From the IMG/VR virus record IMGVR_UViG_3300019135_000007: a DNA stretch of 48,086 bases. One strand, given 5' to 3'. Below the pieces are notes generated by a model. That model made no database searches. It saw only the letters and a program-made list of their open reading frames with translations, and was not told where the DNA came from. Every line of letters starts with the position of its first letter. Within the stretch, counting starts at the first letter, position 1. Origin of the DNA: a virus. Below are positions 508 to 48,086 of this stretch, piece by piece. A program made the position numbers and the translations under genes.

Positions 508-1215
508 TTAGCTTCTTCCCTCTTTAAGATGGGGCAGAGTGCAGGTTCCTTCTAGTTTGCATTTAGCACCTGCATATTGGGATAGGTTAGGAGCCACCTT
601 CTTTAAGTGGTTATACATTTTGTTAGCTACCATCCTGACCTCCCACTGGGCATAACAGCACATTCTTTCCTTCAGGAAGTGAATAAGGTTTCTTGCATCA
701 ATGGTCATGTAGAGCCTACATTTGGTTCCTGTAGGAATCACATACCTTGCATCTTCCCTAGGGATGCCCATATCTACCAGTTCTGTGTAGGTATCATAAG
801 CCTTCTTTACACTTTCTAAATACTTTTTCTTTGCTTCAGGGTTCTTCTTGATGCTAGGAGGAATCACTGCTTCCATCCTTGCTTTTTGGTATCTATAGGA
901 CTGCTTGGTATATTTTCCTGTCCTATGCCTTAAAATCTGTTCCCCACATGGGAGGGATATATCTTCAATCAGGAAGGAGAAAGAACTGTGTTCTGCTACT
1001 GACCAGTGCCCCTTCCCAATACTTCTGCTAAACAGACCTGCAATATTTTCTTCATCCTCAAACCTTGTGATAATTTCCTCAATAGACTTCTTACTGTAGG
1101 AAAGATTAGTACCTACTGCAATATTCTGTTCCACATGAGAAACAGGATTTTCCCCCATAACCCTCACTACTTGAGGGTTCATCTGTGTGTAAGACATAAG
1201 AGTAACCTTTGCCAT
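508..1215 (-). CDS. thyX: FAD-dependent thymidylate synthase ThyX
   Basis: 235-aa ORF with the ThyX signature LRHRTGKYTKQSYRY (RHR...S.RY) and a typical ThyX length. Confidence 0.88.
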   Translation of the reverse strand: MAKVTLMSYTQMNPQVVRVMGENPVSHVEQNIAVGTNLSYSKKSIEEIITRFEDEENIAGLFSRSIGKGHWSVAEHSSFSFLIEDISLPCGEQILRHRTGKYTKQSYRYQKARMEAVIPPSIKKNPEAKKKYLESVKKAYDTYTELVDMGIPREDARYVIPTGTKCRLYMTIDARNLIHFLKERMCCYAQWEVRMVANKMYNHLKKVAPNLSQYAGAKCKLEGTCTLPHLKEGRS

Positions 1216-1436
1216 AGTGGTTTCTTCCTTTCATTTTCATATTTTTCTAACTGTGCCTGAAGGCTTTTTACCTTCTGTTCCAAGACCTCTCTTTCTATTT
1301 CCAGTTCCTGAATGTGTATTTCTAATTCTTCTTTTTCATGTTGAAGGAAAGAAACATCTTCCCTCATTTCCTCATTCTCAATTTCCAACTCATTAACCCT
1401 TTCATAAAGTGCTTCTTTGGTATTGTGATACCACAT
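1179..1436 (-). CDS. Hypothetical coiled-coil protein (85 aa)
   Basis: Heptad-rich sequence (ELEIENEEM, ELEIHIQELEIEREVLEQ); overlaps the thyX start by 37 nt. Confidence 0.5.
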   Translation of the reverse strand: MWYHNTKEALYERVNELEIENEEMREDVSFLQHEKEELEIHIQELEIEREVLEQKVKSLQAQLEKYENERKKPLWQRLLLCLTHR

Positions 1437-1492
1437 CTTGAAGCCCTCCTGTCCTTGAGTAAACTAGAAGTTTACAAAGAGGATTAAAAAAA

Positions 1493-2859: not shown

Positions 2860-3159
2860 CTACAGGTCTTTCAACATATCTTTCATCATACTTTGGAATT
2901 TCTCTCTACCTTCAGATTGTGGGGCAGGTTTTTCCATTGTGATTTTTCTGCATATGCCCCTCAAATACTCTGCAGGTCTTTTGATACATTTGGCTTGGCT
3001 TGGTCTTGATTTAACAGTATTGATGGCTTCCCTTACTGTGTCCTCACCATATGTTTTATATAGTCTACCAATAAAACCAAAAGCAACACTATCCTGCTTG
3101 ACACCTTCTACCTCAAACCACTCTTTAGTGAGTTGAGTTACTGGATTGGGTTTAGACAA
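2860..3159 (-). CDS. Hypothetical protein (99 aa), directly upstream of dnaB
   Basis: ORF track; its position suggests a replication accessory or loader role, but I recognise no motif. Confidence 0.5.
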   Translation of the reverse strand: MSKPNPVTQLTKEWFEVEGVKQDSVAFGFIGRLYKTYGEDTVREAINTVKSRPSQAKCIKRPAEYLRGICRKITMEKPAPQSEGREKFQSMMKDMLKDL

Positions 3160-5080: not shown

Positions 5081-5082
5081 AT

Positions 5083-5650: not shown

Positions 5651-5739
5651 CACTTTGTTTACAGAATCTTTTTCAAATTCCAATAAAGTGTAGTGGGGCA
5701 GAATATTGGATGTGGTGGTAGTAAAAACCAAAGTTATGT

Positions 5740-5862: not shown

Positions 5863-5948
5863 CAAAAAGTTTACTGAATGACAAAGATTGTTACACTTCC
5901 CCTGCCCCACTGAACTATCTTTTTAGGGAAAAGGGCATACTACACCCC

Positions 5949-7273: not shown

Positions 7274-7303
7274 AAAAAAGAAGGGGATTATTTCTGCCCC
7301 TTC
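7274..7303 (-). terminator. Rho-independent terminator of the par operon
   Basis: Minus sense GAAGGGG-CAGAAATAAT-CCCCTTC followed by TTTTTT. Confidence 0.75.
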
Positions 7304-7809: not shown

Positions 7810-8604
7810 TTACACCCTTTCTTTAGTTTCTAATACTTCTTTGATTAACTCATAATAAGCATAAACTATAGGATTTTTAGCATCTGTCCATACTGCAGGT
7901 TTACCTTCATAAGCAGTAGAGTTAGCAAATCTGATTGACTTTGGTATAATGGTTTCATACATGGTAATATCTTGTTCTAAACAATACTTTCTAGCTTGTT
8001 GAAGCATTTCACTATGCAGATGGGTTCTACTATCTACCATCATGCCCACAACTCCTGCCACTTCTAGTTGTGGGTTTAAATTTTTTCTGAAGTCCTCAAT
8101 AGCTTCTAAAACCCTGACTAAACCCTTCACTCCAAACATTTCAGGTACAAATGGAATAATGACCTTATCAGCCACTGCTAAAGCATTTCCAGTAGGTAGT
8201 CCCATGCTTGGGGGAGTATCAATCAGTATGTAGTCATAGTGGTGTCTGATACTCTCAATGCCCTGTTTTAAAAGTTGGAATGGTAGTGGGTATTTATCCT
8301 GATGGGGCAGAACATCAAACTCCAAGAAACTCATATCTTCATTAGCAGGTAATAAGTCTAGGTTTTCATCTACTGAAATGATTACTTCATCTGTCCTTGC
8401 CCCACCCATAAGAACATCATAGATGGTGTTCATAATCTCACTGGGGTTCAATCCAAAGGCAATAGAACTGTTTCCCTGACCATCAGTATCAATGATAAGC
8501 ACCTTCTTGTTATATTCCCTAGAAAGAACTCCTGCAAGGTTGGAAACAAGGCTTGTCTTACCTACACCACCTTTATTCATAGCAATAGCATATGTAACAG
8601 TCAT
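7810..8604 (-). CDS. parA: ParA/Soj-type partition ATPase (small type Ib)
   Basis: 264 aa; deviant Walker A NKGGVGKTS and Walker B-like region ILIDTPPS. Confidence 0.9.
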   Translation of the reverse strand: MTVTYAIAMNKGGVGKTSLVSNLAGVLSREYNKKVLIIDTDGQGNSSIAFGLNPSEIMNTIYDVLMGGARTDEVIISVDENLDLLPANEDMSFLEFDVLPHQDKYPLPFQLLKQGIESIRHHYDYILIDTPPSMGLPTGNALAVADKVIIPFVPEMFGVKGLVRVLEAIEDFRKNLNPQLEVAGVVGMMVDSRTHLHSEMLQQARKYCLEQDITMYETIIPKSIRFANSTAYEGKPAVWTDAKNPIVYAYYELIKEVLETKERV

Positions 8605-8710: not shown

Positions 8711-9316
8711 TTCAGGCTCAATTTCCATAGTATCTAGCTTGTCTGAACCACAATAATGACACTTCCCTGCCTTCATATCTACACTTTCTCCACATTCCAA
8801 ACAGTATCTATCTAATGTTGCCTTGGGCTTCCCCATCAATTCATCCAGTGTAGTTCCTAGGATTCCAGCATATCCTTCAAACTTATCTTCTGCCCCATTT
8901 CCTCTTTCCATTTGGTAGACATATGGAGTAGAAACCTCAAGCCATTCTGCCACTTCTTGTGCAGTCTTGTTCTTTTTCTTTCTTAACTCTTTTAAAGCCT
9001 TGCCCCACTTTTTCTTGTTATCTTTCAGTTCCTGTTGAGCATCCAGTCTATCTGCAGATGTTTCAATCTTAATATCCTGTACTTCAGGGATGTATTGGAA
9101 CAAATTCTCTACTGTTGTTTCATAGATATGTGCAATAGCAAAAGCAGTTTCTAACTGGATGTTGGTATATCCCTCTACCCCTCTTTCAATTCTGCTGTAA
9201 TGATTGTCAGAGATACCTAACCCTAACTGTCTTAATCTTAATGCCACATCCTTTTGTGTCCATCTTCTTTCATTTCTCAATCTTGTTAATTCCCATGTAT
9301 TAGGTCTGATAGCCAT
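8702..9316 (-). CDS. Double XRE-HTH protein with a C-terminal zinc ribbon
   Basis: Two HTH units (WTQKDVALRLRQLGLGISDNHYSRIERG and KTAQEVAEWLEVSTPYVYQMERG) plus CLECG...CHYCG. Its start abuts the recombinase stop (TAAATG). Confidence 0.75.
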   Translation of the reverse strand: MAIRPNTWELTRLRNERRWTQKDVALRLRQLGLGISDNHYSRIERGVEGYTNIQLETAFAIAHIYETTVENLFQYIPEVQDIKIETSADRLDAQQELKDNKKKWGKALKELRKKKNKTAQEVAEWLEVSTPYVYQMERGNGAEDKFEGYAGILGTTLDELMGKPKATLDRYCLECGESVDMKAGKCHYCGSDKLDTMEIEPEEL

Positions 9317-10117
9317 TTAAGACACCTTCCTTTTTAAATTGTTATTTGCTCTGCCCCAAACTTGTTTGGATACTATTGGTTCAAAGTTAAGATTGATAAG
9401 TTCACCATTGTAGATATATCTGCCACAGTAAAGTTCATTCTTCAGGATTTTATTTACACTGTTATGTGTCCATTCCTCACCTTTACTGTTTCTGTATCCT
9501 TCCTGATTGAGCCTGTCAGCAACCTTTCTGATGGATAGACCATCAAAGGCTACCCAGTGGAATATTTTCTTTACCACCTTGGCTTCTTCAGGGATGATTT
9601 CTAGTTGGTTTTCTTCAGTCACCTTGTATCCATAAGGTTTTCTGCTAATGTAGTGACCTTCCCTTAATTTAGCCATCTTTGCAGGCTGTACCCTATTCTT
9701 GATGTTGTCCCTTTCTTGTTCTGCAAATATCCCTAGGAGTTGAAAGGCTAGTTTTCCCACTGGTGTATCTGTATCCAAATCCAAATCACCAATATAGATG
9801 GATGCTCCTAGCTGATTGATTTCATGCTTGGTATTAAGGGCAATCCTTAAATCCCTTGAAAATCTGTCTGCCTTGTAAACATAAACAGTGTCTACTGGGT
9901 TTTCCTTTATAAACTCCATCATTCTCTTGAGTTCAGTTCTATCTTCCTTTGCCCCACTCTCACCTTTTTCAATGAAGTGTTCAATAATTTCATAACCTTT
10001 GTAGACTGCCCATCTATGAGCCTGATTTACTTGGTCATCTAAAGAAATTCCCTTCACTTGGTCTTGAGTGGATACCCTTGCATAGACAACTGCTCTTTTT
10101 AACTCTTGTTCTAGCAT
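9317..10117 (-). CDS. Serine recombinase (resolvase catalytic domain plus partial 'recombinase' domain, 266 aa)
   Basis: VVYARVSTQDQ nucleophile motif and YVYKADRFSRD. The KPYGYKV...IRKVADRLNQEGY segment is typical of large serine recombinases, but there is no zinc-ribbon or coiled-coil domain. Confidence 0.9.
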   Translation of the reverse strand: MLEQELKRAVVYARVSTQDQVKGISLDDQVNQAHRWAVYKGYEIIEHFIEKGESGAKEDRTELKRMMEFIKENPVDTVYVYKADRFSRDLRIALNTKHEINQLGASIYIGDLDLDTDTPVGKLAFQLLGIFAEQERDNIKNRVQPAKMAKLREGHYISRKPYGYKVTEENQLEIIPEEAKVVKKIFHWVAFDGLSIRKVADRLNQEGYRNSKGEEWTHNSVNKILKNELYCGRYIYNGELINLNFEPIVSKQVWGRANNNLKRKVS

Positions 10118-10596: not shown

Positions 10597-11436
10597 TTAC
10601 TTTACCCTGATTTTCTGCCCTATCTGTAGTGCAGTGGCTTTGATGTTAGGGTTTAGTGCTTCTAGCTTTGCTACAGTAGTTTTGAATCTTTCAGCTATAG
10701 ACCAAAGGGTATCCCCTTTTTGAATCACATAGTATTTCTGTGGCTTCAGGTAAACTTTATCACCTATCTGTAGAGCCTTTGCCTTCAAATGAGGGTTTAA
10801 TTCCTCAAGTTGGGTTACAGAAATATTGTATTTTTGTGAAATGCCCCAAAGTGTATCTCCTTTTTGGATAATATGATAGTCCTTGGATGGGGCAGGTTTA
10901 GGCTCCACCTTTTTAGGTGGATTTAGCTTTTCCTGAACCGTTTTCTTAAATCTTTCAAATTCTTTAGGGTTCTTCACCCACCCTGCAGGGCAATTTTTCC
11001 CTGTAATGTCAAAATGCCTGTAAAGATTTTTAGCACTCAAGCCAAATAGCTTGCATAGCTGAACTACAATATCCACTGTATTTTGGAATGTTTTTTCAGT
11101 GATATTCATGTTAGCATCTACACACATTTCTACCCCAATGGTTGTGAAGTTGGCATTATCACCAAGTTCCTTAGGGTAGCACCTGCCCCCATCATTTGCA
11201 TGATAGGCTACTTCATCAAAAGGAATAAGCTGAATGGCTTCCTTTTCATCCACTGCAATATGTGCAGAAGCATACCTTTCCTGTCTAATACAAGTCCCAT
11301 CAAAGTAGTCTCTAATATTTTTAGCAGAAGCCCTAGGAGATGCAGTATAATGAAGAACAATTCCCTTTACTCCCTTTAGCTTCCTAGCAGGTCTAGTGTA
11401 TTTATTTACCCTGATAAAGTCCTTTTTAATTATCAT
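10597..11436 (-). CDS. Endolysin: N-acetylmuramoyl-L-alanine amidase (Amidase_2/PGRP) with two C-terminal LysM domains
   Basis: IVLHYTASP and RHFDITGKNCPAGW motifs. Two LysM repeats (YHIIQKGDTLWGISQKYNISV..., YYVIQKGDTLWSIAERFKTTV...). Confidence 0.9.
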   Translation of the reverse strand: MIIKKDFIRVNKYTRPARKLKGVKGIVLHYTASPRASAKNIRDYFDGTCIRQERYASAHIAVDEKEAIQLIPFDEVAYHANDGGRCYPKELGDNANFTTIGVEMCVDANMNITEKTFQNTVDIVVQLCKLFGLSAKNLYRHFDITGKNCPAGWVKNPKEFERFKKTVQEKLNPPKKVEPKPAPSKDYHIIQKGDTLWGISQKYNISVTQLEELNPHLKAKALQIGDKVYLKPQKYYVIQKGDTLWSIAERFKTTVAKLEALNPNIKATALQIGQKIRVK

Positions 11437-12396: not shown

Positions 12397-15300
12397 TTAA
12401 ATCCTCTTGCCACAAGCCACAACCTGAACCTGAATGGAATGGGTAAATGCCCCACCATCAACATCATGCAGATACACCCTTGCCCCTGTTGATGAAAGAT
12501 TGTAGATAGAAGCAGTATATCTGTAGGAATTAACATTCACTGCAGTAGCTAGACACCATATTGGAGTTGCACTAAAAGCAACTGGGAAGTTAAAATCTGC
12601 AAAGGAGTATTTAGCATTACTGAAATTTACTGTTACTATGATGTTTTGTATCATCATCAAATCATCATGATTAGAACCATCCCTGACAGAAAGCATGTTG
12701 TAGCCATTTGGATACTTATATCTTGGCATTTGCAGGTATCTAGTAGTTGCATCAAAAATCCACTTATCCCCTATACTATTGTTGATAGTGACATTCCCAC
12801 CATCAGGGTTTAAATGAAGGGTTCCTACCCCTCCACTACTGAAGGCTGAAAGTTCATTGGTATCCATTTTTAAACTGTTGCCTGTTGTGGCATTACCAAT
12901 AACAAACCCTACCCCCTGTGATGTCCCTGAAACATCATCTGTTGTAGGGATAAGGAGGTTGATATGGCTGGCTTCAATGGTTCCTGCTTTAACTTTTCCC
13001 CAAGTATTGATGGAAGGGTACTTATCCAACCCCCTTCTCATAATCCAAATATTATCTTCTGAATCATATACATGGGCTTGCTCACTCTCTACCACTTGGA
13101 CACCATCAATTTCCACCCAGTTTGAGTTGGTTGTTTTAATTTCAATTTCTGCCCAGTATTCCATATAGTTGGAAAGAGCATTTGGAGCCATAACCCCTTC
13201 ATATACAAACCTTCTAACTGCTCCATCCTGCCATAGTGGGGCAGAAAAGTTTTGAGTGTAGGATTGAACTAAAAACCCTTCTCCATAGAAGGAAACCTTT
13301 AATTGTGGGATACCTACATTGGATTGAGAAGTATTGTAGTTAGAAAACTTGGCATGGAAAGAGATAGAATACTTTCTGTTAGGTCTTACTTGAAAGGCTT
13401 GTTTAACATAGTTGGCACTATTTACTGCAACTGCCTGATTTCCAAATGGGGCAGTGGAAGCCACATCAGTTTGAAGATTACTGTTTAATCTTGGATTTCC
13501 TACTGTTGCCCATTGATACCATAGGTCTGATTGTGCAGGAATAGCAAAATACCCATTAGAATCTACTGAACCTGTCCCCTCAATCATTTCAAAGGAGTGG
13601 TCAACAATCAGATTAGTTTTAGGACTTAACCTATACTTATGACCTGCTGAATTGCTATCCTCAAGAGTAAAGCTACCATCCTTAACATTCACACCATTTT
13701 TATTAATGGTTGTAACTGCCCCATTAGTTCCCACTGTTATACCATTAGAGTTAATGGTAATTTCAGATGTGTTAGACTGGACAGATACTAGGTCAGCATT
13801 AAGTGTCCCTGCCTTAATAACTTGGGCATTTAACCCTGCAGTAGCAATATGAGAAGTCTGAATGGCACCTGCTACAATCTTATCTGCAGTAACAGAGTTG
13901 GAAGCTAATTCATTGGCAGTCAGGGTTCCTGAAGCTATCTTATTGGCAGTAATAGTCCTTGAAGCTATTTGGTTAGCAGTGACAGTACCAGTGTAAATAT
14001 CCCCACCATCAATATAAGTGGTATTAGAATATTTCCACCCATCCACTAAACTCTTTGTGTCACTGTATTGAGTGTCTGCATAGCTTTTTGCATTATTTTC
14101 TGCAGTATCAATCATCCCTTTTGTTTCAGAAGGCATTTCCACTACTTTAGGGTTAGCTACCCATACATTTTTAGCTACTCCATTATTATAGAAGTTAAGC
14201 CATCTAACCCTAATGTATTTGGTATTAGGGAGCATCCTAGCAGAGTGGGTAATATTCTCACCCAATCCCTTGAATTTAGATAGGTCTGTGCCTGCAGGCA
14301 TTATATAGGCAGTCCTCTTAATCCAAGTGTTGATAGGGTCATTATCACCACTCCAAAAGTAAGGGTTAGTGTTTTTTGTAGCTAATGTAGTGTCACTGAT
14401 ATTGACCATATCAATACCAATATTTTCTTGTGAAGCATCATAGCCATACAGACCAAAATAATCTGTTCCTCCCAATCCATCAGCCATAAACCAAAATGTA
14501 ACCTCATAGGCTTTGGATGGGTCTACTTCAATAAAATCAGATATGACCATAGTATTTCCACTGGTATATACCTGCTGAACAGGTACTGTTGCACCAAAAA
14601 AGTCCTTATTCACCACTGATAATGGTGAGCCTGTCCATTTGTCTAATGTTCCTGTCTTTGTAGTATTGTTGATAAGGTTGCCATATTTGCTGTCAGCATA
14701 GGTTTTAGCATTATTTTCTGCAGTACTAATCTTGCTATCAGTAGTAGCAGTATCATATGCCCCTATATCAATAGCTTGTGTAGGAGTGGCATATACCCAA
14801 GTGGAACCATCCCATCTTCTCAATCTGTTAGGGTTTACAGAAGTGTCAAGCCAAAAATCATCCACTTGAGGGTTAGATGGGGCAGTAGATTGTCTTGGTA
14901 TTCCTTTTTCTCTGCTTTCTGCAATAGCTTGTGCATTGTTTGCAGTAGTTTCTGCCTGTTGTGCAGTGGCTTCAGCATTTTGAGCAGTATTCAGGGCATT
15001 GGAAGCATCATTTTGTGCCTGTGTTGCTTTATTCTCTGCATTAGTGGCAGTGGTTTCAGCATTAGCTGCTTTATTCTCAATTGCCCCAATTGTGGAGCCT
15101 GTTGTAGTATTAATCAATTCTCCACTAGCTACTTGAATTTGGATAGGGTTGTATTCATCATCTACCACAACCATTGAACCTGCCTGAACTGCAGAACTAT
15201 GATGGACATTATTCAAGGTATTCTGACCTTTTTCTAGCCTCTTAAAGAAGTCAAATAAATCTTTCTTCCTGTTAGCTAATGTGACCTTAATTTGCTCTGT

Positions 15301-32417: not shown

Positions 32418-32504
32418 CATAATATTAAAATTGAATTTAAAAAATTTCTGACCTGCCCCACTTCTGAAATAAGGGCATGGGGTTCCAGTCCAAGGGTAGC
32501 CCCC

Positions 32505-32519: not shown

Positions 32520-33246
32520 AAAATAAAATTACTAGAACCTGAAATGAAATGGAAGGTTGCATCCTGCAGGGAAAGGGTACACCCTTTCTTGTGAACTTAA
32601 GTGAACAAACAGAAAGGGGAATCATCTTTATGTTTTGTAATGCTTTAGTTGGTTAAAGTGTATAGGTTTTTGGATAAAATTAGTAGATAGAGTTGACTGC
32701 CCAACCCAGTTTGTACCCCCTCCAATTTTTGGAAGGCATACCCCCTATAATCCCCCACAATCTACCATATATGACATTATTTGTCAGTTTATACATTCAA
32801 TGAATTGTAATTTTATTCCAAGTTATTTTCCTTTATTGTTTCCTATCTTTTAAGAATAGAAACATTATTTTCTTTCCAGTGCTAGAAACTACTACATTTC
32901 CTAGCTTTTACAAATATTTTACAATTGGAGATAATGGACATATGGAAGAAACTTACATGAGGATATTTTGCCTAGTTGTGGAAGCTCTTTCCAGTAGAGC
33001 ATGTTGGAGTATCCCAACCACCATTTTCCAGTCAATTTATCCCAAAATACTCCCACATATTCCCTTGTATATTTTCCTATATTTTTATACATTTTGTTCC
33101 AATTTATTTCCATTTTTTTAACAAAAAATGTCATAAATTATTTCTATTTTCTTCCAGAAAGGTCACAGGTGACTGGTGTTATTTTCCTGTATTTTTCTTC
33201 CAGTAGATGGGGCAGTTTTCCAGTCATGAATAACAAAAAAAGGAAG

Positions 33247-34449: not shown

Positions 34450-34956
34450 TTACTGTAAAACTTCCATATAGATACCATTTCCAAGATAGGCAAATGTCCC
34501 ATTAATTTCCATATCTCTGCCCACTGCATCCCAGTCAATGTAATTAATTAGGTTACTTGGTATATTTTCCATTTGCCCAGTTTCCTCATACCAAGCATAG
34601 GCAACATCTGCCATGTTATAGCAGTCATGAAAGAATGTTACTGCCCCATCTTTTACCAATTGGACTGCATCTTCATAGTCTGATACAAATCCAAGTTCTA
34701 ACAATTCCCCCACTGCCTTAATCTCATATTCTGCCATCCCTTCCAACATTTCTGCTACTTCATTAAGTTTGTCAATGGAAGTATATTCCTCAATTTTAAA
34801 TGGTGCTTCATAGTCATGAATGGCATATTCTTCATATTGGGCATTTAATCCAATTTTTTCTGCAATTTCTTCCAGTGATGCTGGAAGTGTAAACCATTCC
34901 CCTTGTAAAATCCCTTCATTGTATTTTCCCAAGTTAGCTACATAAATGTTAATCAT
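34450..34956 (-). CDS. ardA: ArdA-family antirestriction protein (DNA mimic)
   Basis: 168 aa, acidic. The N-terminus MINIYVANLGKYNEGILQGEWFTLP...EEYAIHDYE matches the ArdA signature. Confidence 0.85.
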   Translation of the reverse strand: MINIYVANLGKYNEGILQGEWFTLPASLEEIAEKIGLNAQYEEYAIHDYEAPFKIEEYTSIDKLNEVAEMLEGMAEYEIKAVGELLELGFVSDYEDAVQLVKDGAVTFFHDCYNMADVAYAWYEETGQMENIPSNLINYIDWDAVGRDMEINGTFAYLGNGIYMEVLQ

Positions 34957-36342: not shown

Positions 36343-36401
36343 CTTAAAAAAATGGGGCAGAAAGTTAGTGTCATCTTTGATTTTTTGTCAGCTTCAGCAG
36401 A

Positions 36402-36459: not shown

Positions 36460-36663
36460 CTATGGGATATACTTTACTTGAACTGTTTGCTTCCCTGTTC
36501 CAGTCATAAATTCTGCTTCTATCTCAAAAGGCTTGCCTTCTTCCACCATCTTCTTTATCTTCTGTTTAGTTTCTATGTCTGTCATGTTCCAAATGGAGTG
36601 CTTAAACCATCTATTCCTATCTGCTCCCCTTAACCTGCCCCATCCTGAAATGATTAGTTCCAT
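36460..36663 (-). CDS. Hypothetical protein (67 aa)
   Basis: ORF track. Confidence 0.45.
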   Translation of the reverse strand: MELIISGWGRLRGADRNRWFKHSIWNMTDIETKQKIKKMVEEGKPFEIEAEFMTGTGKQTVQVKYIP

Positions 36664-37509: not shown

Positions 37510-37708
37510 ATAAATCCACCCTTTACATTGTTTTGTCCTTGTGTCAACTTGATGATTACTTGAGCCTAAACAAAAAGGGTTCACTACCCTGAACCATTGG
37601 TTAGGATAGCAAACCCCTTTTGCTTCTCTACATAGTTCCATCTGCCCCACCTGTGTACTATGCAGAACAAAAGATGATGAAGAACACCTTTTCTTATCAC
37701 CCTTCACT

Positions 37709-37735: not shown

Positions 37736-38476
37736 TTAGGCAGTTTCATAAAATTTTTTTAAAACTTTTTTCATTTTTTCCAATGCAGTGTTCCTGATTT
37801 CCCTGACTGTTGTGAAGTGTAAACCCAACTCATAGCCTGCTTCTCTTAAGGTATAATCCCTGTTAATGACCAGTTCCAAGACATTTCTTTGCTTATCAGA
37901 TAGGCTATTCCAAGCCACTCTTAAAGCTAGGTCTTTGTTGGTTAGGGTGTTTTCATCAAATAGGTCTGTTTCAATCCCTAATACATAAATACCCTCATGC
38001 TTAAGAGCATTGAATGGGGCAGTACAATCAGTCCCTTCTGCAAAGAGTACATCAAAACTCTCTGTACTTTGGAGCATATCATCAAACTTTTGCCCATTCC
38101 TTAAGTAGTTAAAAATCCCATACCCCAGTTTCTTCTCAATATAGTGGGAAAAATATACTTCACTGGATGGGTCATAATCACAAAGGGCTTCATAAAATTG
38201 TGTCCTGCCCTCCTGTAGCATATCCTCAAAGCCTTCTTTATCCACTGTGTTAGCCCACATGTCATTATGGATATTGAACTTCCTTAAGCCCCTTCTAGGA
38301 TTGATAAGGATTTCTTTTATCATTGGCTCATATATACTGTAAAGGTCTTGAGCAATCTTCCAAGCCTGTTCCTTTTCTTCTTCATTGTGGGAGTGATAGT
38401 GTTCAATGAATAGTTCTACTAATTCCTGCTTCTTCTCTTTTGGGAGTGCTTGCAATTCTTCAATAGTGCTATACAT
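37736..38476 (-). CDS. Sigma-70 family RNA polymerase sigma factor (phage-encoded)
   Basis: ORF 37736..38521, with the likely start MYSTIEELQ after AAAGGAAGGA. The region 4 HTH is LSDKQRNVLELVINRDYTLREAGYELGLHFTTVREIRNTALEKMKK. Confidence 0.78.
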   Translation of the reverse strand: MYSTIEELQALPKEKKQELVELFIEHYHSHNEEEKEQAWKIAQDLYSIYEPMIKEILINPRRGLRKFNIHNDMWANTVDKEGFEDMLQEGRTQFYEALCDYDPSSEVYFSHYIEKKLGYGIFNYLRNGQKFDDMLQSTESFDVLFAEGTDCTAPFNALKHEGIYVLGIETDLFDENTLTNKDLALRVAWNSLSDKQRNVLELVINRDYTLREAGYELGLHFTTVREIRNTALEKMKKVLKKFYETA

Positions 38477-39055: not shown

Positions 39056-39072
39056 CTATCTGCCCCACTGAT

Positions 39073-39966: not shown

Positions 39967-39979
39967 TACCCCTGCCCCC

Positions 39980-40242: not shown

Positions 40243-40989
40243 TTACTTTTTACTTTTAAAGCATAGTGTTCTGTACTCACAAAACATACACTTTTCATCC
40301 TTTTTGCTTTTGCCTTCTCTTTCAGGTGGCTGTTCCATTTTCCTGACCTCTTGTAAGTATTCAGCTTGGGGCAGGATAACAGTTTGCAGTAAATCTTCAT
40401 CATATTTGACCATAATTTCCTCAAATGGAGAAGTAGCCTTATAGTATCTCTTGCTTTGGGCTTGCATGATTTCATCAGGCAGTGGGTTTTTATTTAAGAA
40501 CAAGACATAAGCAGTATCTAAATCCTTGAATTTTTCAGGGTTCATTTGCTTCAACATATACATGTAGAGATTGACCTGCCATAAGTATGCTTCAGGAAGC
40601 CCATTCTTCTTTAGTTCCTTAAACTTGGTGGTTCCAATGGTCTTGAAGTCTACTACATACCATTTGCCCTTTACTTTACAAACCAAGTCTGAATGTCCCC
40701 CAAGATTGTAGAGTTCCCTGACCTTCACACTAGCTTCAAGGTCAAATTCCTCTATATCAGGTATCATTTCTGTTAATTTCCCTAGGCTTTCATGTAGGGC
40801 ATGCCCTTGTTCCCATATCAGCATCATAGAAAGGCTAGGAATATCAGATATTTCATAGCCCTTGACCTTGTACCAAAACTGCCTAGCACATGTGGTCAAC
40901 TCTGAAGGATGGTTATGTTTTGTGCTTCTTTCCTTTTTGGCTTTCATGGTCTTTTCATATAGGGCTTTTTCATACAGTTCCTTAAACAT
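40243..40989 (-). CDS. Cas4/RecB-family PD-(D/E)xK exonuclease with a 4-Cys cluster
   Basis: GHSDLV...VVDFKT catalytic core, plus one N-terminal Cys (TTCARQFWY) and a C-terminal CMFCEYRTLC. Confidence 0.75.
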   Translation of the reverse strand: MFKELYEKALYEKTMKAKKERSTKHNHPSELTTCARQFWYKVKGYEISDIPSLSMMLIWEQGHALHESLGKLTEMIPDIEEFDLEASVKVRELYNLGGHSDLVCKVKGKWYVVDFKTIGTTKFKELKKNGLPEAYLWQVNLYMYMLKQMNPEKFKDLDTAYVLFLNKNPLPDEIMQAQSKRYYKATSPFEEIMVKYDEDLLQTVILPQAEYLQEVRKMEQPPEREGKSKKDEKCMFCEYRTLCFKSKK

Positions 40990-41185: not shown

Positions 41186-41339
41186 CTATATCTTTCCTTT
41201 CCATTGGCACTAGGAGTTCTCCAACCCTTACCAAGTAAACTCCCTGCCCCATCATGACTACTTCACCATGCTCCCCTAATGGCTTGAAGGCAGGAGATAG
41301 GATTTTCACCCTATCCCCAACATAGATAATTTTGTTCAT
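41169..41339 (-). CDS. Hypothetical protein (56 aa; below the ORF-track cutoff)
   Basis: My own reading: MNKIIYVGDRVKILSPAFKPLGEHGEVVMMGQGVYLVRVGELLVPMERKDIDVEEG. AAGGA SD lies 6 nt upstream; its stop overlaps the next start. Confidence 0.4.
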   Translation of the reverse strand: MNKIIYVGDRVKILSPAFKPLGEHGEVVMMGQGVYLVRVGELLVPMERKDIDVEEG

Positions 41340-41729: not shown

Positions 41730-43136
41730 CTATACCAACTTTATCCTGTTGGCTAATACATTCTTTACATCCTTTTGCCCAGTGATAATCAGCATCTTGC
41801 CTTCCTTGCATTTATCTTTATGCTTGGCATAGATGGCAGGGAATACTGTTACATCCCTGTTTCCTTCAGGAGTATTTAAGACTAGGAAGCACATTAACTG
41901 CCCCCTCTTTGTCTTGATTTCTTTTACCCTTGTGACTTCTCCACCAATGGTTGCTTCTGCCCCTTGTGGGACTGAATCATAAGGGATAAAGCTATATTTA
42001 TCTAATGGATGCCCTGACAGATATAGTCCTAGCACTTCCATTTCCCACCTTAATTTAGTGCTATCAGGGTTTAGCTTATCTTCTTCAGTAATGAGTGGCT
42101 TTCCTTCTCTTTCCTTTTTTGGTCTTTTGGACTGGTAATATTCCATAATTTCAAGCCTATCATCTGTTTCATCAAAGGCTCCTGCCTTGATAAGCCCTAC
42201 AATGCACCCTTTCTTTACCTCTGAACCCTTAAAGACATTGGAAGAAAGAAAATCTTCAAAGTTGGCATAGGGTCTATTCTCAATTATCTGCTTAATGGCT
42301 TTTGTCCCAACACCCCTGATGGCATTTAAGGCAAATAGGATTTTTCCATTAACCTCTGTAAACTCATGAGCAGATGAATTGATTAGTGGGGCAGTCACTT
42401 CAATACCCATTTCCCTAGCTTCTTCTACATACTTGGCTATTTCTTCTAACTTCTTGGATTTGGAATCCTCTTTATCTTCATCCTGAAGTTCTGCAGACAT
42501 AGTGGAAGCCATGAATTTAACAGGATGATTAGCCTTCAGATAGGCAGTCTGATAAGTGACCAAGGCATAGGATGCAGAATGTGACTTGTTAAAGAGGTAT
42601 TTTGCCCCTTTCTCTATCCAATTCCAAAGGATAACTGCTAAATCCTTGTTGTAGCCATTCTTTACACAACCTTGAATAAACTTATCTTTTAGCTTTGCCA
42701 TTTCTTCAGGAAGTTTCTTACCCATAGCTTTCCTTAAATAATCCCTTTCTCCTGCAGTAAACCCTGCAAATACACCTGCTATCTCCATCATCTGTTCTTG
42801 ATATATTAGCTGTCCTTTTGTTGGGGCTAAAATTGGCTCTAGGTCAGGATGGATATATTCAGGCTTGATTTCTCCATTGGCAACCTTGATATACCTTTCT
42901 ACCATTGTTAGCCCATCCTCACCCTTAATGGTGAGTGGACTTGGTCTATATAAAGCTATAATGTCTATGACTTCATCAAAGGTAGTGGGCTTAATACTCC
43001 TTAAAAGCTGTTGCATCCCTACACTTTCTACCTGAAATACCCCTGCAGTGTCACCCTCTTGGAGTAGCTTAAAGGTTTTTTCATCATCCATAGGGATGTT
43101 GAGAATATCAAACATTGTCATACTCCTTTCTGTCAT
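41730..43136 (-). CDS. dnaE: DNA polymerase III alpha (DnaE) C-terminal fragment (fingers onward, with HhH and OB regions)
   Basis: 468 aa beginning ...FDILNIPMDDEKTFKLLQEGDTAGVFQVES...ALYRPSP, i.e. directly after the point where the upstream fragment ends. Confidence 0.9.
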   Translation of the reverse strand: MTERSMTMFDILNIPMDDEKTFKLLQEGDTAGVFQVESVGMQQLLRSIKPTTFDEVIDIIALYRPSPLTIKGEDGLTMVERYIKVANGEIKPEYIHPDLEPILAPTKGQLIYQEQMMEIAGVFAGFTAGERDYLRKAMGKKLPEEMAKLKDKFIQGCVKNGYNKDLAVILWNWIEKGAKYLFNKSHSASYALVTYQTAYLKANHPVKFMASTMSAELQDEDKEDSKSKKLEEIAKYVEEAREMGIEVTAPLINSSAHEFTEVNGKILFALNAIRGVGTKAIKQIIENRPYANFEDFLSSNVFKGSEVKKGCIVGLIKAGAFDETDDRLEIMEYYQSKRPKKEREGKPLITEEDKLNPDSTKLRWEMEVLGLYLSGHPLDKYSFIPYDSVPQGAEATIGGEVTRVKEIKTKRGQLMCFLVLNTPEGNRDVTVFPAIYAKHKDKCKEGKMLIITGQKDVKNVLANRIKLV

Positions 43137-43395: not shown

Positions 43396-45108
43396 TTATG
43401 CCCCCTCTGCATTGATTAAGTCCACTGTCTTGTTAATGACAGACAGAGTTTTAACACCTAACAGGTCAAATTTCACTAACCCTAATTCCTCACATACTCC
43501 CATATCTACTGCAGACATTGGCTCCCCATACTTATCTTCCATAAGAGGAATCACTTCATCCAGTGGTCTGTCTGCTATGATGTAAGCACAAGCATGTTGG
43601 GAAAAATGCCTTACCCTTCCCTCAATCTGTTTGGCATACTTCCATATAGAGTGTTCATACTGCTTCATGTACTTTCTAAATTCTTCACTTTCATTGTAGG
43701 CTTCTTCTAGTGTAATAGAAGGTCTGTCAGGAATACTTTTAGCTATGGCATCACCAAGGCTATATGGGTAGCCACACACCCTTACAACATCCCTGATTAC
43801 CCCTTTAGCACCAAAGGTTCCATAAGTAACTACAGAGCAAACTTTGTCATGACCATATTTCTCTTTAAGATACCTGACCACTGCCCCTCTGTCTGCAAAG
43901 TCCACATCAATATCAGGTAGGGAGTTCCTTTCAGGGTTTAAGAATCTTTCAAACAGTAAGCCATATCTGATAGGGTCTAGTTCCACTATCCCTAGGAGCC
44001 ATGAAACCAGTGAGCCACCTGCAGAACCCCTTCCATAGCCCACCACTATTCCATTATCCCTTGCCCATTTAATGAAGTCCTGAACAATCAGGAAGTATCC
44101 ACTAAAACCTTTATTGATGATAACATCAAACTCATACAAAATTCTGTCTACATACACCTTCTGTTCCTGTTTGGAAAGTTTATTTAATCCCCTTCTTGTC
44201 CATCCTTCTCTGCATAGTTGCTTCAAATATTCTTCTTCAGTCTTAAATGGGGCAGGAACAGGGAATTTAGGTAACTTTATGCTTGTATCAATCTCATAAC
44301 CCTCTACCTGTTCTGCAATCTTTACAGTGGTTTCTACTGCTTCCCTTGCCACTGCTTCAGGAACACCAGTAAACTCCATCAGTTGCTTTATAACTTCCTC
44401 ACCTTCTGACCAATAGTTATGCTTATAAACATCACTATCAAAGTCCCCTATCTTGGTAAGAACCCTATGGGTTAGGTAATCATCTTTCCTTAAGTAGTGA
44501 ACATCTTGAGTGGCTACAATGCCTACCCCTAAATCTTTATACCATGAAGCATAAGCCTGATTGACTTTCTTCTGCATGGTATGTTCATTAGGTTGTATCT
44601 CAAGGTAAAAATCATTACCAAAAATCTTTTTAAATCTTTTGATGGTCTTTTTAGCCCCAAGGTAGTCCCCTTCAGCAATCTGCCTTTGACTTACCCCTGC
44701 CAAACATGCTGATAAGCAGATAAGACCATCCTTGTACTGTTCTAATAATTTATAATCTATCCTTGGTCTGTTATAAAAGCCTTTTAAGTGGGAAATAGTT
44801 GTTAGCTTAAGGAGATTTTTTAAGCCTTGAGTGTTCTTTGCTAAAAGAACTAGATGGTAATGTCTTGTGCCTTTTTCTTTGATAGAAATATCTTCTGTGA
44901 TATATACCTCATTCCCTACAATAGCTTTCACACCATGTTTTCTTCCTGCCTTGATAAAATCCCAAAAGTCATTCATCACACCATGATTAGTTAATGCTAC
45001 TGCAGGTTGCCCTAATTCCTTGGCTCTTAAGACAATTTCTTCAGCACTTGCCATCCCATCCAATGTACTCATTTGGGAGTGTAAGTGGAGTTGACAAAAG
45101 AAGTCCAT
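43396..45108 (-). CDS. dnaE: DNA polymerase III alpha (DnaE) N-terminal fragment (PHP, palm, thumb, start of fingers)
   Basis: 570 aa; PHP start QLHLHSQMSTLDG; ...LPDIDVDF...; ends VKFDLLGVKTLSVINKTVDLINAEGA, then a TAA stop. Confidence 0.9.
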   Translation of the reverse strand: MDFFCQLHLHSQMSTLDGMASAEEIVLRAKELGQPAVALTNHGVMNDFWDFIKAGRKHGVKAIVGNEVYITEDISIKEKGTRHYHLVLLAKNTQGLKNLLKLTTISHLKGFYNRPRIDYKLLEQYKDGLICLSACLAGVSQRQIAEGDYLGAKKTIKRFKKIFGNDFYLEIQPNEHTMQKKVNQAYASWYKDLGVGIVATQDVHYLRKDDYLTHRVLTKIGDFDSDVYKHNYWSEGEEVIKQLMEFTGVPEAVAREAVETTVKIAEQVEGYEIDTSIKLPKFPVPAPFKTEEEYLKQLCREGWTRRGLNKLSKQEQKVYVDRILYEFDVIINKGFSGYFLIVQDFIKWARDNGIVVGYGRGSAGGSLVSWLLGIVELDPIRYGLLFERFLNPERNSLPDIDVDFADRGAVVRYLKEKYGHDKVCSVVTYGTFGAKGVIRDVVRVCGYPYSLGDAIAKSIPDRPSITLEEAYNESEEFRKYMKQYEHSIWKYAKQIEGRVRHFSQHACAYIIADRPLDEVIPLMEDKYGEPMSAVDMGVCEELGLVKFDLLGVKTLSVINKTVDLINAEGA

Positions 45109-45478: not shown

Positions 45479-45580
45479 TTGATTGAGGGAGATAGAGTGA
45501 AGGGAAGTGGCTGTTCCATCTGCCCCCCACACAACCTCACTTCATTGGGAGCATCCCCCTCAAGTTGTCCTTGTGTAATC

Positions 45581-45625: not shown

Positions 45626-45802
45626 TTATTGATTGATTAGTTTGGGTAAATCTAAAAGGATTTTAATGATACCTGAAGCAATAGTGGCTCCCTTTTCTTC
45701 ATCATCAAGCATTTCCCTGTCAAAGCCTAAATCCTCTACAGTCAGCCCTCTTTCATACTCCAATTTCTCAATGAATTGTAATTGCTTTTCAGTAGCTTTC
45801 AT
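45626..45802 (-). CDS. Hypothetical protein (58 aa; below the ORF-track cutoff)
   Basis: My own reading: MKATEKQLQFIEKLEYERGLTVEDLGFDREMLDDEEKGATIASGIIKILLDLPKLINQ, after GAAAGGTAGG. Confidence 0.4.
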   Translation of the reverse strand: MKATEKQLQFIEKLEYERGLTVEDLGFDREMLDDEEKGATIASGIIKILLDLPKLINQ

Positions 45803-45887
45803 GGTTAATACCTACCTTTCTTTAATTTGTCCTTAAACCCTTCCATCCAAAAGATATAGACAATATACAACTCTAAAATCCTGTCCT

Positions 45888-48086
45888 TTATAAACTGCAT
45901 GATTGACTTCCACACCCCTTGCATTGTGGGCATCCTTCTACCAAGACAAATTCCTTGTGACCACAATTTCCACATGTCCAGTTTTCATACTTGCCCTTTT
46001 TCTGTGGGGCAGACTGCACTTCAGGTTGCTCTTTTTCCACTTCCTCATTGTTCTCTAGGGACAAAATTTGCTCACTTCTTGAGCCATCCCTATAGATAGT
46101 GCCCCCCTTACATCCTGACTTGTAGAGATTTATATAAACTGCTTCACACTGCTCTACAGTGTAATCTGCAGGAGCATTAACTGTTTTGCTGATGGAAGAA
46201 TCAATATATTTCTGTGCTACTGCCTGAACTGCCACATGTTCTTCAGGGGATAAGTCCATAGCACCCACAAACCATTCAGGCAACTTGTCTAAATGAGGGT
46301 TTCTATCCATGAAGGCTTTAGCTACACCTGCATACTGGATTGTACTTCCTATCCTAGACAATCTGTGATACTTCATAGCAAAGTGTGGCTCAATACCTGT
46401 ACTTACAGAACCATGAATATCTAACATAGAAGGTGTCATACTTCCTGTGGTTCCTGTAGGAGCAAAAGTATTAAGAGTAAGGTTCCTGATACCATACTTT
46501 TCAATATCCTCTTTGATTTCTTTAGGGAGCCTTTGAACAAAGCCTGATTGCAGATACTTTTCTTTATCAAAGAATGGGAAGCATCCCTTTTCTTTAGCTA
46601 GTTCAATGGACATTTTATAGCTTTCATCCCTTAAGAATTTCATTAGTTGCTCAAAGACTTTAAGACCTTCAGGAGAACCATATTTTACTCTTAAGGCAAT
46701 AAATAGGTCAGCTACACCCATTCCACCTAGACCTACCCTTCTTTCACCCTTCTGCCAATCTTCCATAGCCTTATCAAAGTAGAAGGTCAAGTCAATGGCA
46801 TTGTCTAGGAATCTTACACCTGTTCTAATGGTCTTTCTTAATAAGTCCCAGTCAATTTCATAAATATCACCCAGTTCATCTTCCCCTACTTTCTTAATCA
46901 TCCTACCAAAGTTGACTGCAGAAAGATTGCAAGTAGAGTTGCCCAAAATTGGTTGTTCTCCACATGGGTTAGTAGCCATTACTAGCCCTAAATACCATCC
47001 ATTGTGATTTCTATTGACTGTATCAATAAAAATGACCCCCGGTTCTGCTGAACTCCAATTGGACTTCATTATCTTGTTCCACATATCTTTAGCCCTGATT
47101 TTTTTATAAACAATAACAGGTAATCCTGCCTTTTCCCATTTCTCAATATCTGCATCCCAAAGTTCATCATAAAGAGGGTGTGTAGTGTCAGGGAACTTCA
47201 ATTCCCATTCTAAATCCTTCTCTACTGCTTCCATGAACTTGTTAGAGATTAGGATTGAACTGTTATTGCCTTCCATGAAGCCTTGCTTATTTTTAGCCCC
47301 AATAAAGTCCTCAATGTAGTTAGGGTCATTTTCATCATTGGTATAGAACACATCAGGATGCCAATCATGGATAGTGAGCATTTGTGCCCCTCTCCTATTG
47401 CCTTGATTGACAAAATCAGTGAGTTGGCTAAACTGGTTCCCAATATAAACTGCCCCTGCAGATTGTCCTTTTGTCTTGCTTAATGGGGAATATCTTGGTC
47501 TGAACACTGAAAGGTTAGTTCCTACTCCCCCACCCCTAGCCATGATTTCAGAAATTCTACCCATATGGTGGAAGATAGCCTGTCTACTATCCCTTCCCTT
47601 TTCAGGAGCATATGGGGCAGGTTCAACATTAATGACATAGCAGTTAAAAAGTGTAACCTCTGAATCATCCCCTGCACCTGTCAAAATCCTTCCTGAAGGC
47701 ACTAAATAGAAGTTCTCTAATGCTTCCTTAAACTCTTTATAAGCCTTCTCTCTAGCTTCAGGTGTTTGCTCTACAGAAGCTAAAGCCTTTGCCACCCTGT
47801 CTGCAGTTTCTGCATACCTTACTTCAAGAAGGGCATCTATAAGGTTAATGTCCTGCACAAACTCCTGCCCTACCTGATACTCCACACCATCAGCAGTTTG
47901 CAGTTCCATAATTACCTTGTCACCCTGAATATCCTTTACAGTAGCAATTTCCCTGACTGGATACTTACCATCTTTCACTAGGGTTACTACTGTTGCACCC
48001 TTCTTGATGAATTTTTTCTTATCCAGTGTTTTCTTTGCATATCTTGTAAGATGAATTTTTCTGTGAAAGCCCTGTAATTCTACTCC
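45888..48086 (-). CDS. nrdJ: Class II (adenosylcobalamin-dependent) ribonucleotide reductase; the start codon lies across the junction at 128-130
   Basis: The active-site loop ATNPCGEQPIL and C-terminal Cys-rich tail CGNCGH...CPQCKGCGSQSC are typical of NrdJ. The frame stays open to the window edge. Confidence 0.88.
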   Translation of the reverse strand, partial: GVELQGFHRKIHLTRYAKKTLDKKKFIKKGATVVTLVKDGKYPVREIATVKDIQGDKVIMELQTADGVEYQVGQEFVQDINLIDALLEVRYAETADRVAKALASVEQTPEAREKAYKEFKEALENFYLVPSGRILTGAGDDSEVTLFNCYVINVEPAPYAPEKGRDSRQAIFHHMGRISEIMARGGGVGTNLSVFRPRYSPLSKTKGQSAGAVYIGNQFSQLTDFVNQGNRRGAQMLTIHDWHPDVFYTNDENDPNYIEDFIGAKNKQGFMEGNNSSILISNKFMEAVEKDLEWELKFPDTTHPLYDELWDADIEKWEKAGLPVIVYKKIRAKDMWNKIMKSNWSSAEPGVIFIDTVNRNHNGWYLGLVMATNPCGEQPILGNSTCNLSAVNFGRMIKKVGEDELGDIYEIDWDLLRKTIRTGVRFLDNAIDLTFYFDKAMEDWQKGERRVGLGGMGVADLFIALRVKYGSPEGLKVFEQLMKFLRDESYKMSIELAKEKGCFPFFDKEKYLQSGFVQRLPKEIKEDIEKYGIRNLTLNTFAPTGTTGSMTPSMLDIHGSVSTGIEPHFAMKYHRLSRIGSTIQYAGVAKAFMDRNPHLDKLPEWFVGAMDLSPEEHVAVQAVAQKYIDSSISKTVNAPADYTVEQCEAVYINLYKSGCKGGTIYRDGSRSEQILSLENNEEVEKEQPEVQSAPQKKGKYENWTCGNCGHKEFVLVEGCPQCKGCGSQSCSL
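47960..48086. repeat. Right copy of the 127-bp direct repeat
   Basis: Identical to 1..127. Confidence 0.95.

Follow-up and report, generated by a model that had tools for sequence, protein, structure and literature searches.

The 48,086-nucleotide viral record IMGVR_UViG_3300019135_000007 of IMG/VR (the window, meaning the whole stretch analysed) raises the question of why one 8-base word, TGGGGCAG, should recur throughout a phage-plasmid genome in both orientations, and what might read it. The word proves to be one form of W-GGGGCAG, a family-private, orientation-dependent DNA signal of one Bacillaceae phage-plasmid family.

An over-represented word with a 7-bp core

A preliminary description, made from the letters of the window, had listed 39 exact copies of TGGGGCAG or its reverse complement CTGCCCCA (the plus-strand reading of copies on the minus strand), and direct search returned all 39 at exactly those positions, 22 on the plus and 17 on the minus strand. 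Dinucleotide shuffling (n=100) gave 1.93 +/- 1.30 copies (maximum 5), and low-order Markov models gave 0.4-3.6 (1.8-3.6 for orders 1-3). The maximal-order Markov test that had been proposed was uninformative (20 expected for 22) because its sub-words consist of the motif copies themselves, and it was dropped in favour of order 1-5 models trained with the motif copies masked; these support the enrichment, with 1.5-3.8 copies expected for the 8-mer and 4.4-9.7 for its 7-base core (51 observed). The enrichment also survived codon shuffling, the second check that had been suggested: 500 synonymous-codon shuffles of the 66 called genes gave 3.5 +/- 1.7 copies of the 8-mer (maximum 9) and 6.8 +/- 2.4 of the core, against 30 and 39 observed in genes, respectively.

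From its one-mismatch neighbours, the true unit is W-GGGGCAG with the core GGGGCAG: AGGGGCAG occurs eight times, GGGGGCAG four times and CGGGGCAG not at all, and the window holds 51 cores, 25 on the plus and 26 on the minus strand. Both the one-base variants, within a few bases of where they had been placed, and the flank preferences were described correctly. The base at position -1 of the 39 copies is usually a purine (A20/G13/T6/C0) and that at position +8 is never C (A15/G14/T10/C0); apart from the missing C on both sides and the upstream purine preference the flanks are nearly information-free, and this is therefore a true short word and not a piece of a longer repeat.

Thirty of the 39 exact copies (77%) are genic, in many reading frames, and nine fall outside the called genes, where seven had been counted, with the copy at 5694 in a doubtful 51-aa open reading frame (ORF). 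Checked against the gene calls, the frame contexts are as first given (LPH/LPQ, S/T/P-A-P, WGR, L/M/V-G-Q and x-G-A-x, with the Cys-Pro frame unused). GCC-CCA does encode 16 of the 33 Ala-Pro dipeptides in the window, although GCC, at 180 of 859 Ala codons (21%), is not the rare codon it had been called. Selection acts on the DNA word rather than on a peptide, as had been argued, because the codon shuffles fall short, the frames are many, copies are intergenic, and relatives keep the word while its positions turn over.

That composition, codon usage or the genome's extreme CpG and palindrome avoidance produced the word as a functionless by-product has a probability close to nil. The genome is under unusually strong sequence constraints, but masked Markov models (to order 5) and codon shuffles yield 10-20 times too few copies, CpG-free Priestia prophages are without the word, and no such by-product could produce the regular per-strand spacing, alternation, site conservation and concerted flank switch described below. 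Restriction or BREX-type (bacteriophage exclusion) targets would be under-represented, whereas the word is ~20-fold over-represented in the window. The sites, in window coordinates, are as follows.

530..537 (+), TGGGGCAG, in thyX ORF 508-1215(-)
2920..2927 (+), TGGGGCAG, in ORF 2860-3159(-)
5694..5701 (+), TGGGGCAG, doubtful small (51-aa) ORF or intergenic
5902..5909 (-), TGGGGCAG, intergenic
7294..7301 (-), core variant AGGGGCAG, intergenic
8303..8310 (+), TGGGGCAG, in parA-like ORF 7810-8604(-)
8890..8897 (-), TGGGGCAG, in double helix-turn-helix (HTH) ORF 8702-9316(-)
9351..9358 (-), TGGGGCAG, in serine recombinase ORF 9317-10117(-)
10888..10895 (+), TGGGGCAG, in amidase ORF 10597-11436(-)
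11183..11190 (-), core variant GGGGGCAG, in amidase ORF
13237..13244 (+), TGGGGCAG, in tail-fibre ORF 12397-16209(-)
13447..13454 (+), TGGGGCAG, in tail-fibre ORF
13716..13723 (-), TGGGGCAG, in tail-fibre ORF
14878..14885 (+), TGGGGCAG, in tail-fibre ORF
16045..16052 (+), TGGGGCAG, in tail-fibre ORF
17556..17563 (-), TGGGGCAG, in ORF 16822-18216(-)
18244..18251 (+), TGGGGCAG, intergenic
19181..19188 (-), TGGGGCAG, in tape-measure ORF 18253-21093(-)
19557..19564 (-), core variant AGGGGCAG, in tape-measure ORF
20913..20920 (-), TGGGGCAG, in tape-measure ORF
21273..21280 (+), core variant AGGGGCAG, in ORF 21156-21344(-)
22063..22070 (-), TGGGGCAG, in tail-tube ORF 21913-22821(-)
22333..22340 (+), core variant AGGGGCAG, in tail-tube ORF
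23428..23435 (+), TGGGGCAG, in ORF 23065-23481(-)
24151..24158 (-), TGGGGCAG, in ORF 24001-24405(-)
28034..28041 (+), TGGGGCAG, in portal ORF 27917-29344(-)
28382..28389 (-), TGGGGCAG, in portal ORF
31671..31678 (+), TGGGGCAG, intergenic
31964..31971 (+), TGGGGCAG, intergenic
32144..32151 (+), core variant AGGGGCAG, in DUF3846 ORF 31999-32376(-)
32289..32296 (-), TGGGGCAG, in DUF3846 ORF
32453..32460 (-), TGGGGCAG, intergenic
33208..33215 (+), TGGGGCAG, intergenic
34641..34648 (-), TGGGGCAG, in ardA ORF 34450-34956(-)
36353..36360 (+), TGGGGCAG, intergenic
36635..36642 (-), TGGGGCAG, intergenic
37642..37649 (-), TGGGGCAG, between the sigma-factor gene and a 214-aa ORF, inside a longer GTG-start ORF 36865-37707
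38015..38022 (+), TGGGGCAG, in sigma-factor ORF 37736-38521(-)
39060..39067 (-), TGGGGCAG, intergenic
39972..39979 (-), core variant GGGGGCAG, intergenic
40367..40374 (+), TGGGGCAG, in PD-(D/E)XK/Cas4-like ORF 40243-40989(-)
41244..41251 (-), TGGGGCAG, in ORF 41169-41339(-)
41898..41905 (-), core variant GGGGGCAG, in DnaE C-part ORF 41730-43136(-)
41957..41964 (-), core variant AGGGGCAG, in DnaE C-part ORF
42387..42394 (+), TGGGGCAG, in DnaE C-part ORF
43881..43888 (-), core variant AGGGGCAG, in DnaE N-part ORF 43396-45108(-)
44248..44255 (+), TGGGGCAG, in DnaE N-part ORF
45520..45527 (-), core variant GGGGGCAG, intergenic, near the tRNA-Arg genes
46005..46012 (+), TGGGGCAG, in ribonucleotide reductase ORF 45888-47978(-)
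47450..47457 (-), core variant AGGGGCAG, in ribonucleotide reductase ORF
47613..47620 (+), TGGGGCAG, in ribonucleotide reductase ORF

The word in a family of phage-plasmids

Bases 1-127 and 47960-48086 of the window are identical, and this 127-bp terminal direct overlap, which holds no motif copy, therefore marks a complete circular genome with a true length of 47,959 bp, that of a phage-plasmid of spore-forming Bacillaceae. The contig derives from JGI metagenome 3300018866. Two ENA metagenome assemblies contain the identical sequence, starting at different points, and a purifying-selection test on these copies was uninformative, as they are 100% identical to the window. Megablast against phages gave no match and TerL-based scans of viral and genome contigs gave no close relatives; relatives were found by protein searches and in PLSDB, the closest sharing 58-64% amino-acid identity in TerL. 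They include Rossellomorea phage phiT1 (L001/L002), a circular 53-kb plasmid of Halobacillus litoralis (L011), a circular 52-kb plasmid of 'bacterium ACL01CRY2', ~50-kb contigs from Priestia endophytica and P. megaterium, and several metagenomic contigs. They form a family of phage-plasmids of spore-forming Bacillaceae, whose 11 members examined have Halobacillus, Rossellomorea and Priestia hosts or come from metagenomes.

The comparison with related phages that had been proposed finds the word common to the whole family (~1 GGGGCAG per kb in each of these 11 genomes, with a total of 362 cores over 350 kb) and missing in unrelated phages. The window, the Halobacillus plasmid and L095 have TGGGGCAG as their top-scoring 8-mer; for phiT1, ACL01CRY2, three metagenomic members and the elements from Priestia it is AGGGGCAG, often as AAGGGGCAGG, while L096 is relaxed at the 5' flank (T10/A5/G5). 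Depending on the lineage this flank base is T or A, and orthologous sites are no exception to the switch: at shared positions it follows the genome type, being CTGCCCCA in one and CTGCCCCT in the other. The specificity therefore changed in concert over the sites. On the evidence of a single whole-genome pair (phiT1 and ACL01CRY2, 66% amino-acid identity vs 46-55% for others), the A-type genomes seem to be one clade, and therefore no single protein can be tied to the switch.

In alignments of orthologous proteins some sites prove to be old: 6 of 29 have the same position and orientation in the window and phiT1, and 14 of 24 in phiT1 and ACL01CRY2 (0.01 expected by chance). Within the same alignments the motif 7-mers are fully conserved in 51% vs 13.5% of random 7-mers, and in 24% vs 6.8% (2-4x). 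Most site positions have turned over between members at ~50% amino-acid identity; sites turn over while density and spacing are kept.

One explanation is a binding-site array for a sequence-specific protein encoded by the element, whose function would be unrelated to end processing: self-marking (for packaging or against a nuclease of the element), plasmid organisation or condensation, or global silencing while the element resides as a plasmid-prophage. We hold this to be somewhat improbable, although of all the explanations it leaves the fewest parts missing. In its favour, only the family has the word, which hosts and other phages lack; the concerted T/A switch and its relaxed intermediate agree with a reader that the element encodes and that co-evolves with its sites; several conserved HTH proteins, as well as conserved unknowns, are candidates for that reader; and a word whose density in self DNA is 50 times that in host DNA would be an efficient self-tag. 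An array does not itself predict separate even spacing per orientation, nor alternation; the 77% of copies that are genic lie in many frames and not at promoters, and a 7-bp core invariant across lineages at ~50% amino-acid identity is unlike typical operator/repressor pairs. Nor is the word a centromere, because the partition modules vary (ParA vs ParM) while the word stays.

The stoperators of Cluster A mycobacteriophages (sites of the L5 gp71 repressor) are likewise dozens of dispersed asymmetric sites in a temperate phage, and their sequence co-varies by lineage with the element-encoded reader, as the flank base of the family word varies by lineage. Stoperators are 13 bp long, mostly intergenic and oriented with transcription, whereas here 30 of the 39 exact copies are genic and the cores are split 25 to 26 between the strands, though nearly all genes lie on one.

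That strand is the minus strand of the window. Structural genes encode the terminase, a Mu-type portal and head module, the tape measure, tail proteins, holin and amidase. Plasmid and regulatory genes encode a serine recombinase, a ParA-type ATPase, CI/Cro-like HTH proteins, a Rep-like HTH protein and a sigma factor. Replication and nucleotide genes encode a DnaB-type helicase, a split DnaE, ribonucleotide reductase, ThyX, MazG and DUF1599, and a Cas4/AddB-type PD-(D/E)XK nuclease, an Hjc-like resolvase and ArdA are also present. DnaE is split over 41730-43136(-) and 43396-45108(-) with a small ORF between (PHP and pol3_alpha vs fingers, HHH and OB), as in all family members. Family members have exchanged the partition module: where the window has a ParA/AAA_31 ATPase, at 7810-8604(-), relatives have a ParM/ALP actin-like protein (L011 18500-19501, L097 5164-6165, L099 5229-6245). 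Three tRNA genes, Trp(CCA), Arg(TCT) and Arg(CCT), lie in the window at 21747-21820(-), 45324-45396(-) and 45402-45478(-), respectively, and the two for Arg fit a genome whose Arg codons are exclusively AGA/AGG (297/293); a further 'tRNA-Asp', called at 14562-14652 within the tail-fibre gene, looks spurious.

Spacing and orientation of the copies

Strand counts are equal in the complete genomes (25/26, 24/28, 22/26 and 29/25). The per-strand gaps have a coefficient of variation of 0.39-0.64 vs ~0.95 for random placement (P <= 0.012 in 8/8 tests). When pooled, their median is 1.83 kb (5-95% range 0.36-3.9 kb), with 35 gaps below 1 kb vs 79 expected (exponential) and 9 above 4 kb vs 16. In every genome the orientation alternates more than chance would predict: the runs test gives z = 2.4 for the window and values up to 3.9 for the other genomes, and the Stouffer z over ten genomes is 7.4; these pooled statistics are not fully independent, as family genomes share some sites by descent, and each complete genome is significant alone. 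Orientation matters, because each orientation is separately even-spaced and the two alternate: each strand needs its own copy at bounded distance everywhere, about one per 2 kb.

A test of strand skew had also been proposed, and it found equal strands, without a polarity switch along the genome or any relation to terL/pac; even spacing on each strand, with alternation, was found instead. This spacing, the family-wide 7-bp core and the lineage flank switch go beyond the preliminary description, and of all the results the arrangement of the sites is the most informative. Back-to-back pairs (CTGCCCC...GGGGCAG) are closer than face-to-face pairs (median ~700 vs ~940 bp, Mann-Whitney P = 4e-4, 11 genomes pooled), and a search for a fixed distance between oppositely oriented sites found a broad distribution.

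Two classes of chromosomal word share part of this pattern. The FtsK-orienting polar sequences and SpoIIIE recognition sequences are also G-rich polar 8-mers, read by a translocase, but they are strongly skewed and switch at ori and dif, whereas the family word has neither skew nor switch. The DNA uptake sequences of Haemophilus and Neisseria likewise occur at ~1 per kb, in equal orientations and in genes in several frames, and in Haemophilus their spacing is reportedly more even than random. Uptake sequences, however, are spread densely over the host chromosome, where a host competence receptor makes use of them, whereas the family word is confined to a mobile element and rare in hosts; its alternation of orientation is not a known property of the Haemophilus sequences.

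The spacing would also suit a lagging-strand priming signal, or a primosome or helicase-loading signal, of the element's own replisome (DnaB-type helicase and split DnaE), with primers starting at the G-rich word on whichever strand serves as lagging template. Bacterial Okazaki fragments fall in the size range of the 1.83-kb median gap, the word travels with the family-specific replisome, and it is missing from those phages of these hosts that have a DnaG/Toprim primase of their own. It resembles phage primase template sites (5'-(G/T)GGTC for T7, 5'-GCA for SP6) as a G-rich template word with a variable 5' base and Okazaki-size spacing, in which the G-run would give a C-rich primer. Known primase sites, however, have 3-5 nt and are read by a phage-encoded primase, whereas the family word has 7-8 nt and no primase gene was recognised by Pfam, PHROGs, NCBIfam or PDB sequence search. 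We know of no primase with 7-8 nt specificity. Phage SPP1 uses host DnaG, which needs only trinucleotides, and the DnaB N-terminal domain suggests use of host DnaG here. Equally dense orientations everywhere would moreover demand forks crossing every locus both ways, and we consider priming unlikely. A single-sequence AlphaFold2 model of a conserved 221-aa protein of no recognised function was uninformative (predicted local distance difference test score 46).

Very doubtful is a further possibility, that the word is the target of a site- and strand-specific nicking enzyme or of one modifying base or backbone (T5-type nicks; phosphorothioate, deazaguanine or thymidine hypermodification). An asymmetric, strictly conserved site would suit such an enzyme, and the family carries nucleotide-metabolism and 'nucleotide modification associated' genes (DUF1599, MazG, ThyX, kinases), with a gene like phosphoadenosine phosphosulfate reductase/DndC in two members. 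This last gene is missing from the window and most members, however, and the window showed neither a methyltransferase nor a transglycosylase nor a complete dnd/ssp set. In known phage nick systems only one strand is marked, and a modification target need be neither enriched nor evenly spaced.

Host DNA and the possible readers

The reading that we favour, tentatively and as possible rather than probable, is a Chi-like logic with a non-standard reader, in which the word would be a polar signal that stops or redirects an enzyme engaged in end processing or tracking. It would be read one way by a DNA-tracking enzyme able to arrive from either side, and a correctly oriented copy would stop or redirect the processing of DNA ends, limiting degradation and promoting recombination or re-circularisation. 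Headful packaging (Mu-like head module) of a circular plasmid would leave ends or breaks anywhere, facing either way, and both orientations would therefore be needed everywhere at bounded distance. A directional tracking reader is suggested because the asymmetric core is conserved, the orientations are equal and interleaved, the spacing is bounded, the copies are indifferent to frame and transcription, and the distribution is private to the family. Candidate readers would be the conserved Cas4/AddB-type PD-(D/E)XK nuclease, a sequence-specific polar-barrier protein, or a host enzyme re-targeted by the element.

W-GGGGCAG is short and asymmetric with G at five of its eight bases, and known Chi-like motifs are G-rich and asymmetric (PMC8022716). 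Phages that depend on the host helicase-nuclease and are without recombination modules accumulate Chi to ~1 per 2 kb in the active orientation, phage LLS having 20 in ~43 kb (PMC12315714); the density of the family word per orientation, ~1 per 2 kb, is that of Chi-rich lambdoid phages. A recombinase or anti-nuclease module was likewise not recognised in the window by Pfam, PHROGs, NCBIfam or PDB sequence searches. The Chi words of LLS and of P. aeruginosa phage MD8 are also short, G-rich and asymmetric, enriched 10-20x, and genic in many frames (PMC12315714). They differ in being the host's own, host-enriched word, almost all in one orientation relative to cos, whereas the family word stands at host background, its orientations are equal and interleaved, and the Bacillales word AGCGG is missing. 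Unlike cos phages, the family has no single preferred orientation, and a permuted headful genome would need both. The rest of the genome, in addition, is sculpted against DNA-targeting defence (no CpG, GATC or GGCC; an ardA gene).

Several results weigh against a Chi-like role. Host DNA was represented by proxies (loci of related species and a megaplasmid, not chromosomes of the actual host strains), namely 1.5 Mb of chromosomal DNA in 80 loci from as many Bacillaceae species (Halobacillus fulvus and Rossellomorea vietnamensis among them) and 550 kb (L107-L117) of the 1.08-Mb Priestia megaterium replicon pFDU301A, Priestia hosts carrying A-type members. GGGGCAG occurs 109 times in the Bacillaceae loci (1 per 14 kb) vs 60 expected, and the word ranks ~1000-24000 among ~25,000 host words; neither 8-mer stands out. 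pFDU301A has 11 cores (1 per 50 kb), with eight AGGGGCAG and no TGGGGCAG. The word differs from the Chi-like motifs known in Bacillales (AGCGG, GAAGCGG), and no copy of it was found in 41 kb of two unrelated CpG-free Priestia prophages (PolA, Toprim primase). By gene annotation of the window, the element encodes no helicase-nuclease, and no reader was found among the conserved unknowns by Pfam, PHROGs, NCBIfam or PDB sequence search. The closeness of back-to-back (-,+) pairs is explained by none of the models considered and is not predicted by a simple Chi model.

Analogous words were sought in other elements, and none was found in plasmid-like elements of B. licheniformis and Cytobacillus firmus or in Bacillus phage Andromeda. 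Rejected candidates were GGCGGC of Andromeda (clustered in the tape-measure gene), GAGGCAG of the Priestia prophages and GTGGTTA of the Cytobacillus element (ribosome-binding sites), and the other over-represented words of the 80 host loci (tandem repeats or iterons).

The preliminary description had likened the word, among other things, to host mimicry, and mimicry of a host Chi or uptake word is disfavoured: the word is private to the element family and not a host word. As a copy of the host's own Chi or other 'self' word, read by host AddAB, it would be G-rich and asymmetric as observed, and phages are known to accumulate host Chi (PMC12315714). In GC-skew-oriented Bacillaceae loci AGGGGCAG has a weak leading-strand excess (29 leading/3 lagging vs 17/6.5 expected), as it has in pFDU301A (6/1 vs 2/1); in the oriented loci TGGGGCAG has 13/7 vs 17/8. 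A host Chi would be frequent, over-represented and leading-skewed, a profile that the word lacks in the host proxies: the 8-mers occur at 1 per 40-70 kb, with TGGGGCAG at zero in 550 kb, far too sparse for a chromosomal Chi. The word is unremarkable among skewed or over-represented host words, whereas AGCGG and TAGCGG are conspicuous in pFDU301A (AGCGG 423 vs 346 and 316 vs 232 on the two strands), and unrelated phages of the same host genus are without it. We judge this alternative more doubtful still than nicking or modification. The TAGCGG counts of pFDU301A (167/144 vs 98/76 expected) fit a B. subtilis-like Chi-type pentamer in Priestia.

The reader of a Chi-like signal is probably not ordinary host Chi recognition, and a factor encoded by the element is more likely, because the host replicon is without the word and favours AGCGG, which is impossible in CpG-free genomes; AGCGG counts zero in each of the window, the Halobacillus plasmid and phiT1, because CpG has been purged. 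A bolder version, rather improbable in our estimate, is a 'private Chi': a self-identity word, rare in hosts and read directionally by an end-processing factor that the element encodes or reprograms, with the Cas4/AddB-like nuclease and a polar protein barrier as candidates. Element DNA would be spared and recombined and word-free DNA, of the host or of competitors, degraded, and the word would replace the CpG-containing host Chi lost in the purge.

The purge itself is extreme. The window has only four CpG (5822, 10939, 37017 and 47040; observed/expected 0.002) vs ~579 in synonymous shuffles, all its Arg codons are AGA/AGG, and it has no NCG codons. Observed/expected ratios are 0.001-0.28 across the 11 members vs 0.7-1.4 in host loci. 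The Halobacillus plasmid retains 597 CpG, essentially none as CCG/CGG, whereas phiT1 retains 145, almost all in CCGG or CCGA/TCGG, and L098 mainly CCGA/TCGG; these opposite contexts suggest several distinct CG-directed pressures differing by host. The unrelated prophage-like L100 and L101 (Priestia aryabhattai / megaterium; PolA, Toprim primase, DnaB_C; 20.6 kb each) have zero CpG, and CpG avoidance is therefore independent of the GGGGCAG word.

GATC (0 vs 134 expected) and GGCC (0 vs 111) are missing from the window, as are most CpG-free 6-bp palindromes (e.g. AAGCTT, GAATTC, AGATCT, TGATCA, TGTACA, AGGCCT and GGATCC), and relatives are alike; this is extreme restriction-site avoidance. CTGCAG (PstI/BsuBI) is the sole over-represented palindrome (51 vs 15 expected in the window and 67 vs 20 in phiT1; high in L098 and L099) and is completely missing from the Halobacillus plasmid, ACL01CRY2, L093, L095 and L097. 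GCA-G codon junctions may give rise to this excess incidentally where the site is unrestricted.

A dispersed, selected polar oligomer is a known kind of thing, and Chi, the FtsK-orienting sequences and uptake sequences are among the few cases in which selection writes a signal genome-wide. Every well-understood dispersed polar word belongs to a cellular chromosome and is merely borrowed by phages. Literature searches for the present word returned nothing relevant, only primers and unrelated matches, in keeping with the earlier statement that no such motif was described; to our knowledge, a word that a mobile element owns, spaced by a rule on each strand and flanked by a base specific to the lineage, is undescribed. 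This family keeps its own word, which is absent from hosts, spaced ~2 kb per strand with alternation, and shifted in specificity by one base between lineages. The question is experimentally accessible, as Rossellomorea phage phiT1 and the Halobacillus litoralis plasmid are in culture and the site is short enough for synonymous recoding. The reader would reveal how phage-plasmids discriminate self from host or survive nucleases, or unprecedented long-site priming, or a new genome-wide binding array; a private Chi, if true, would be a new self-recognition mechanism of a phage-plasmid.

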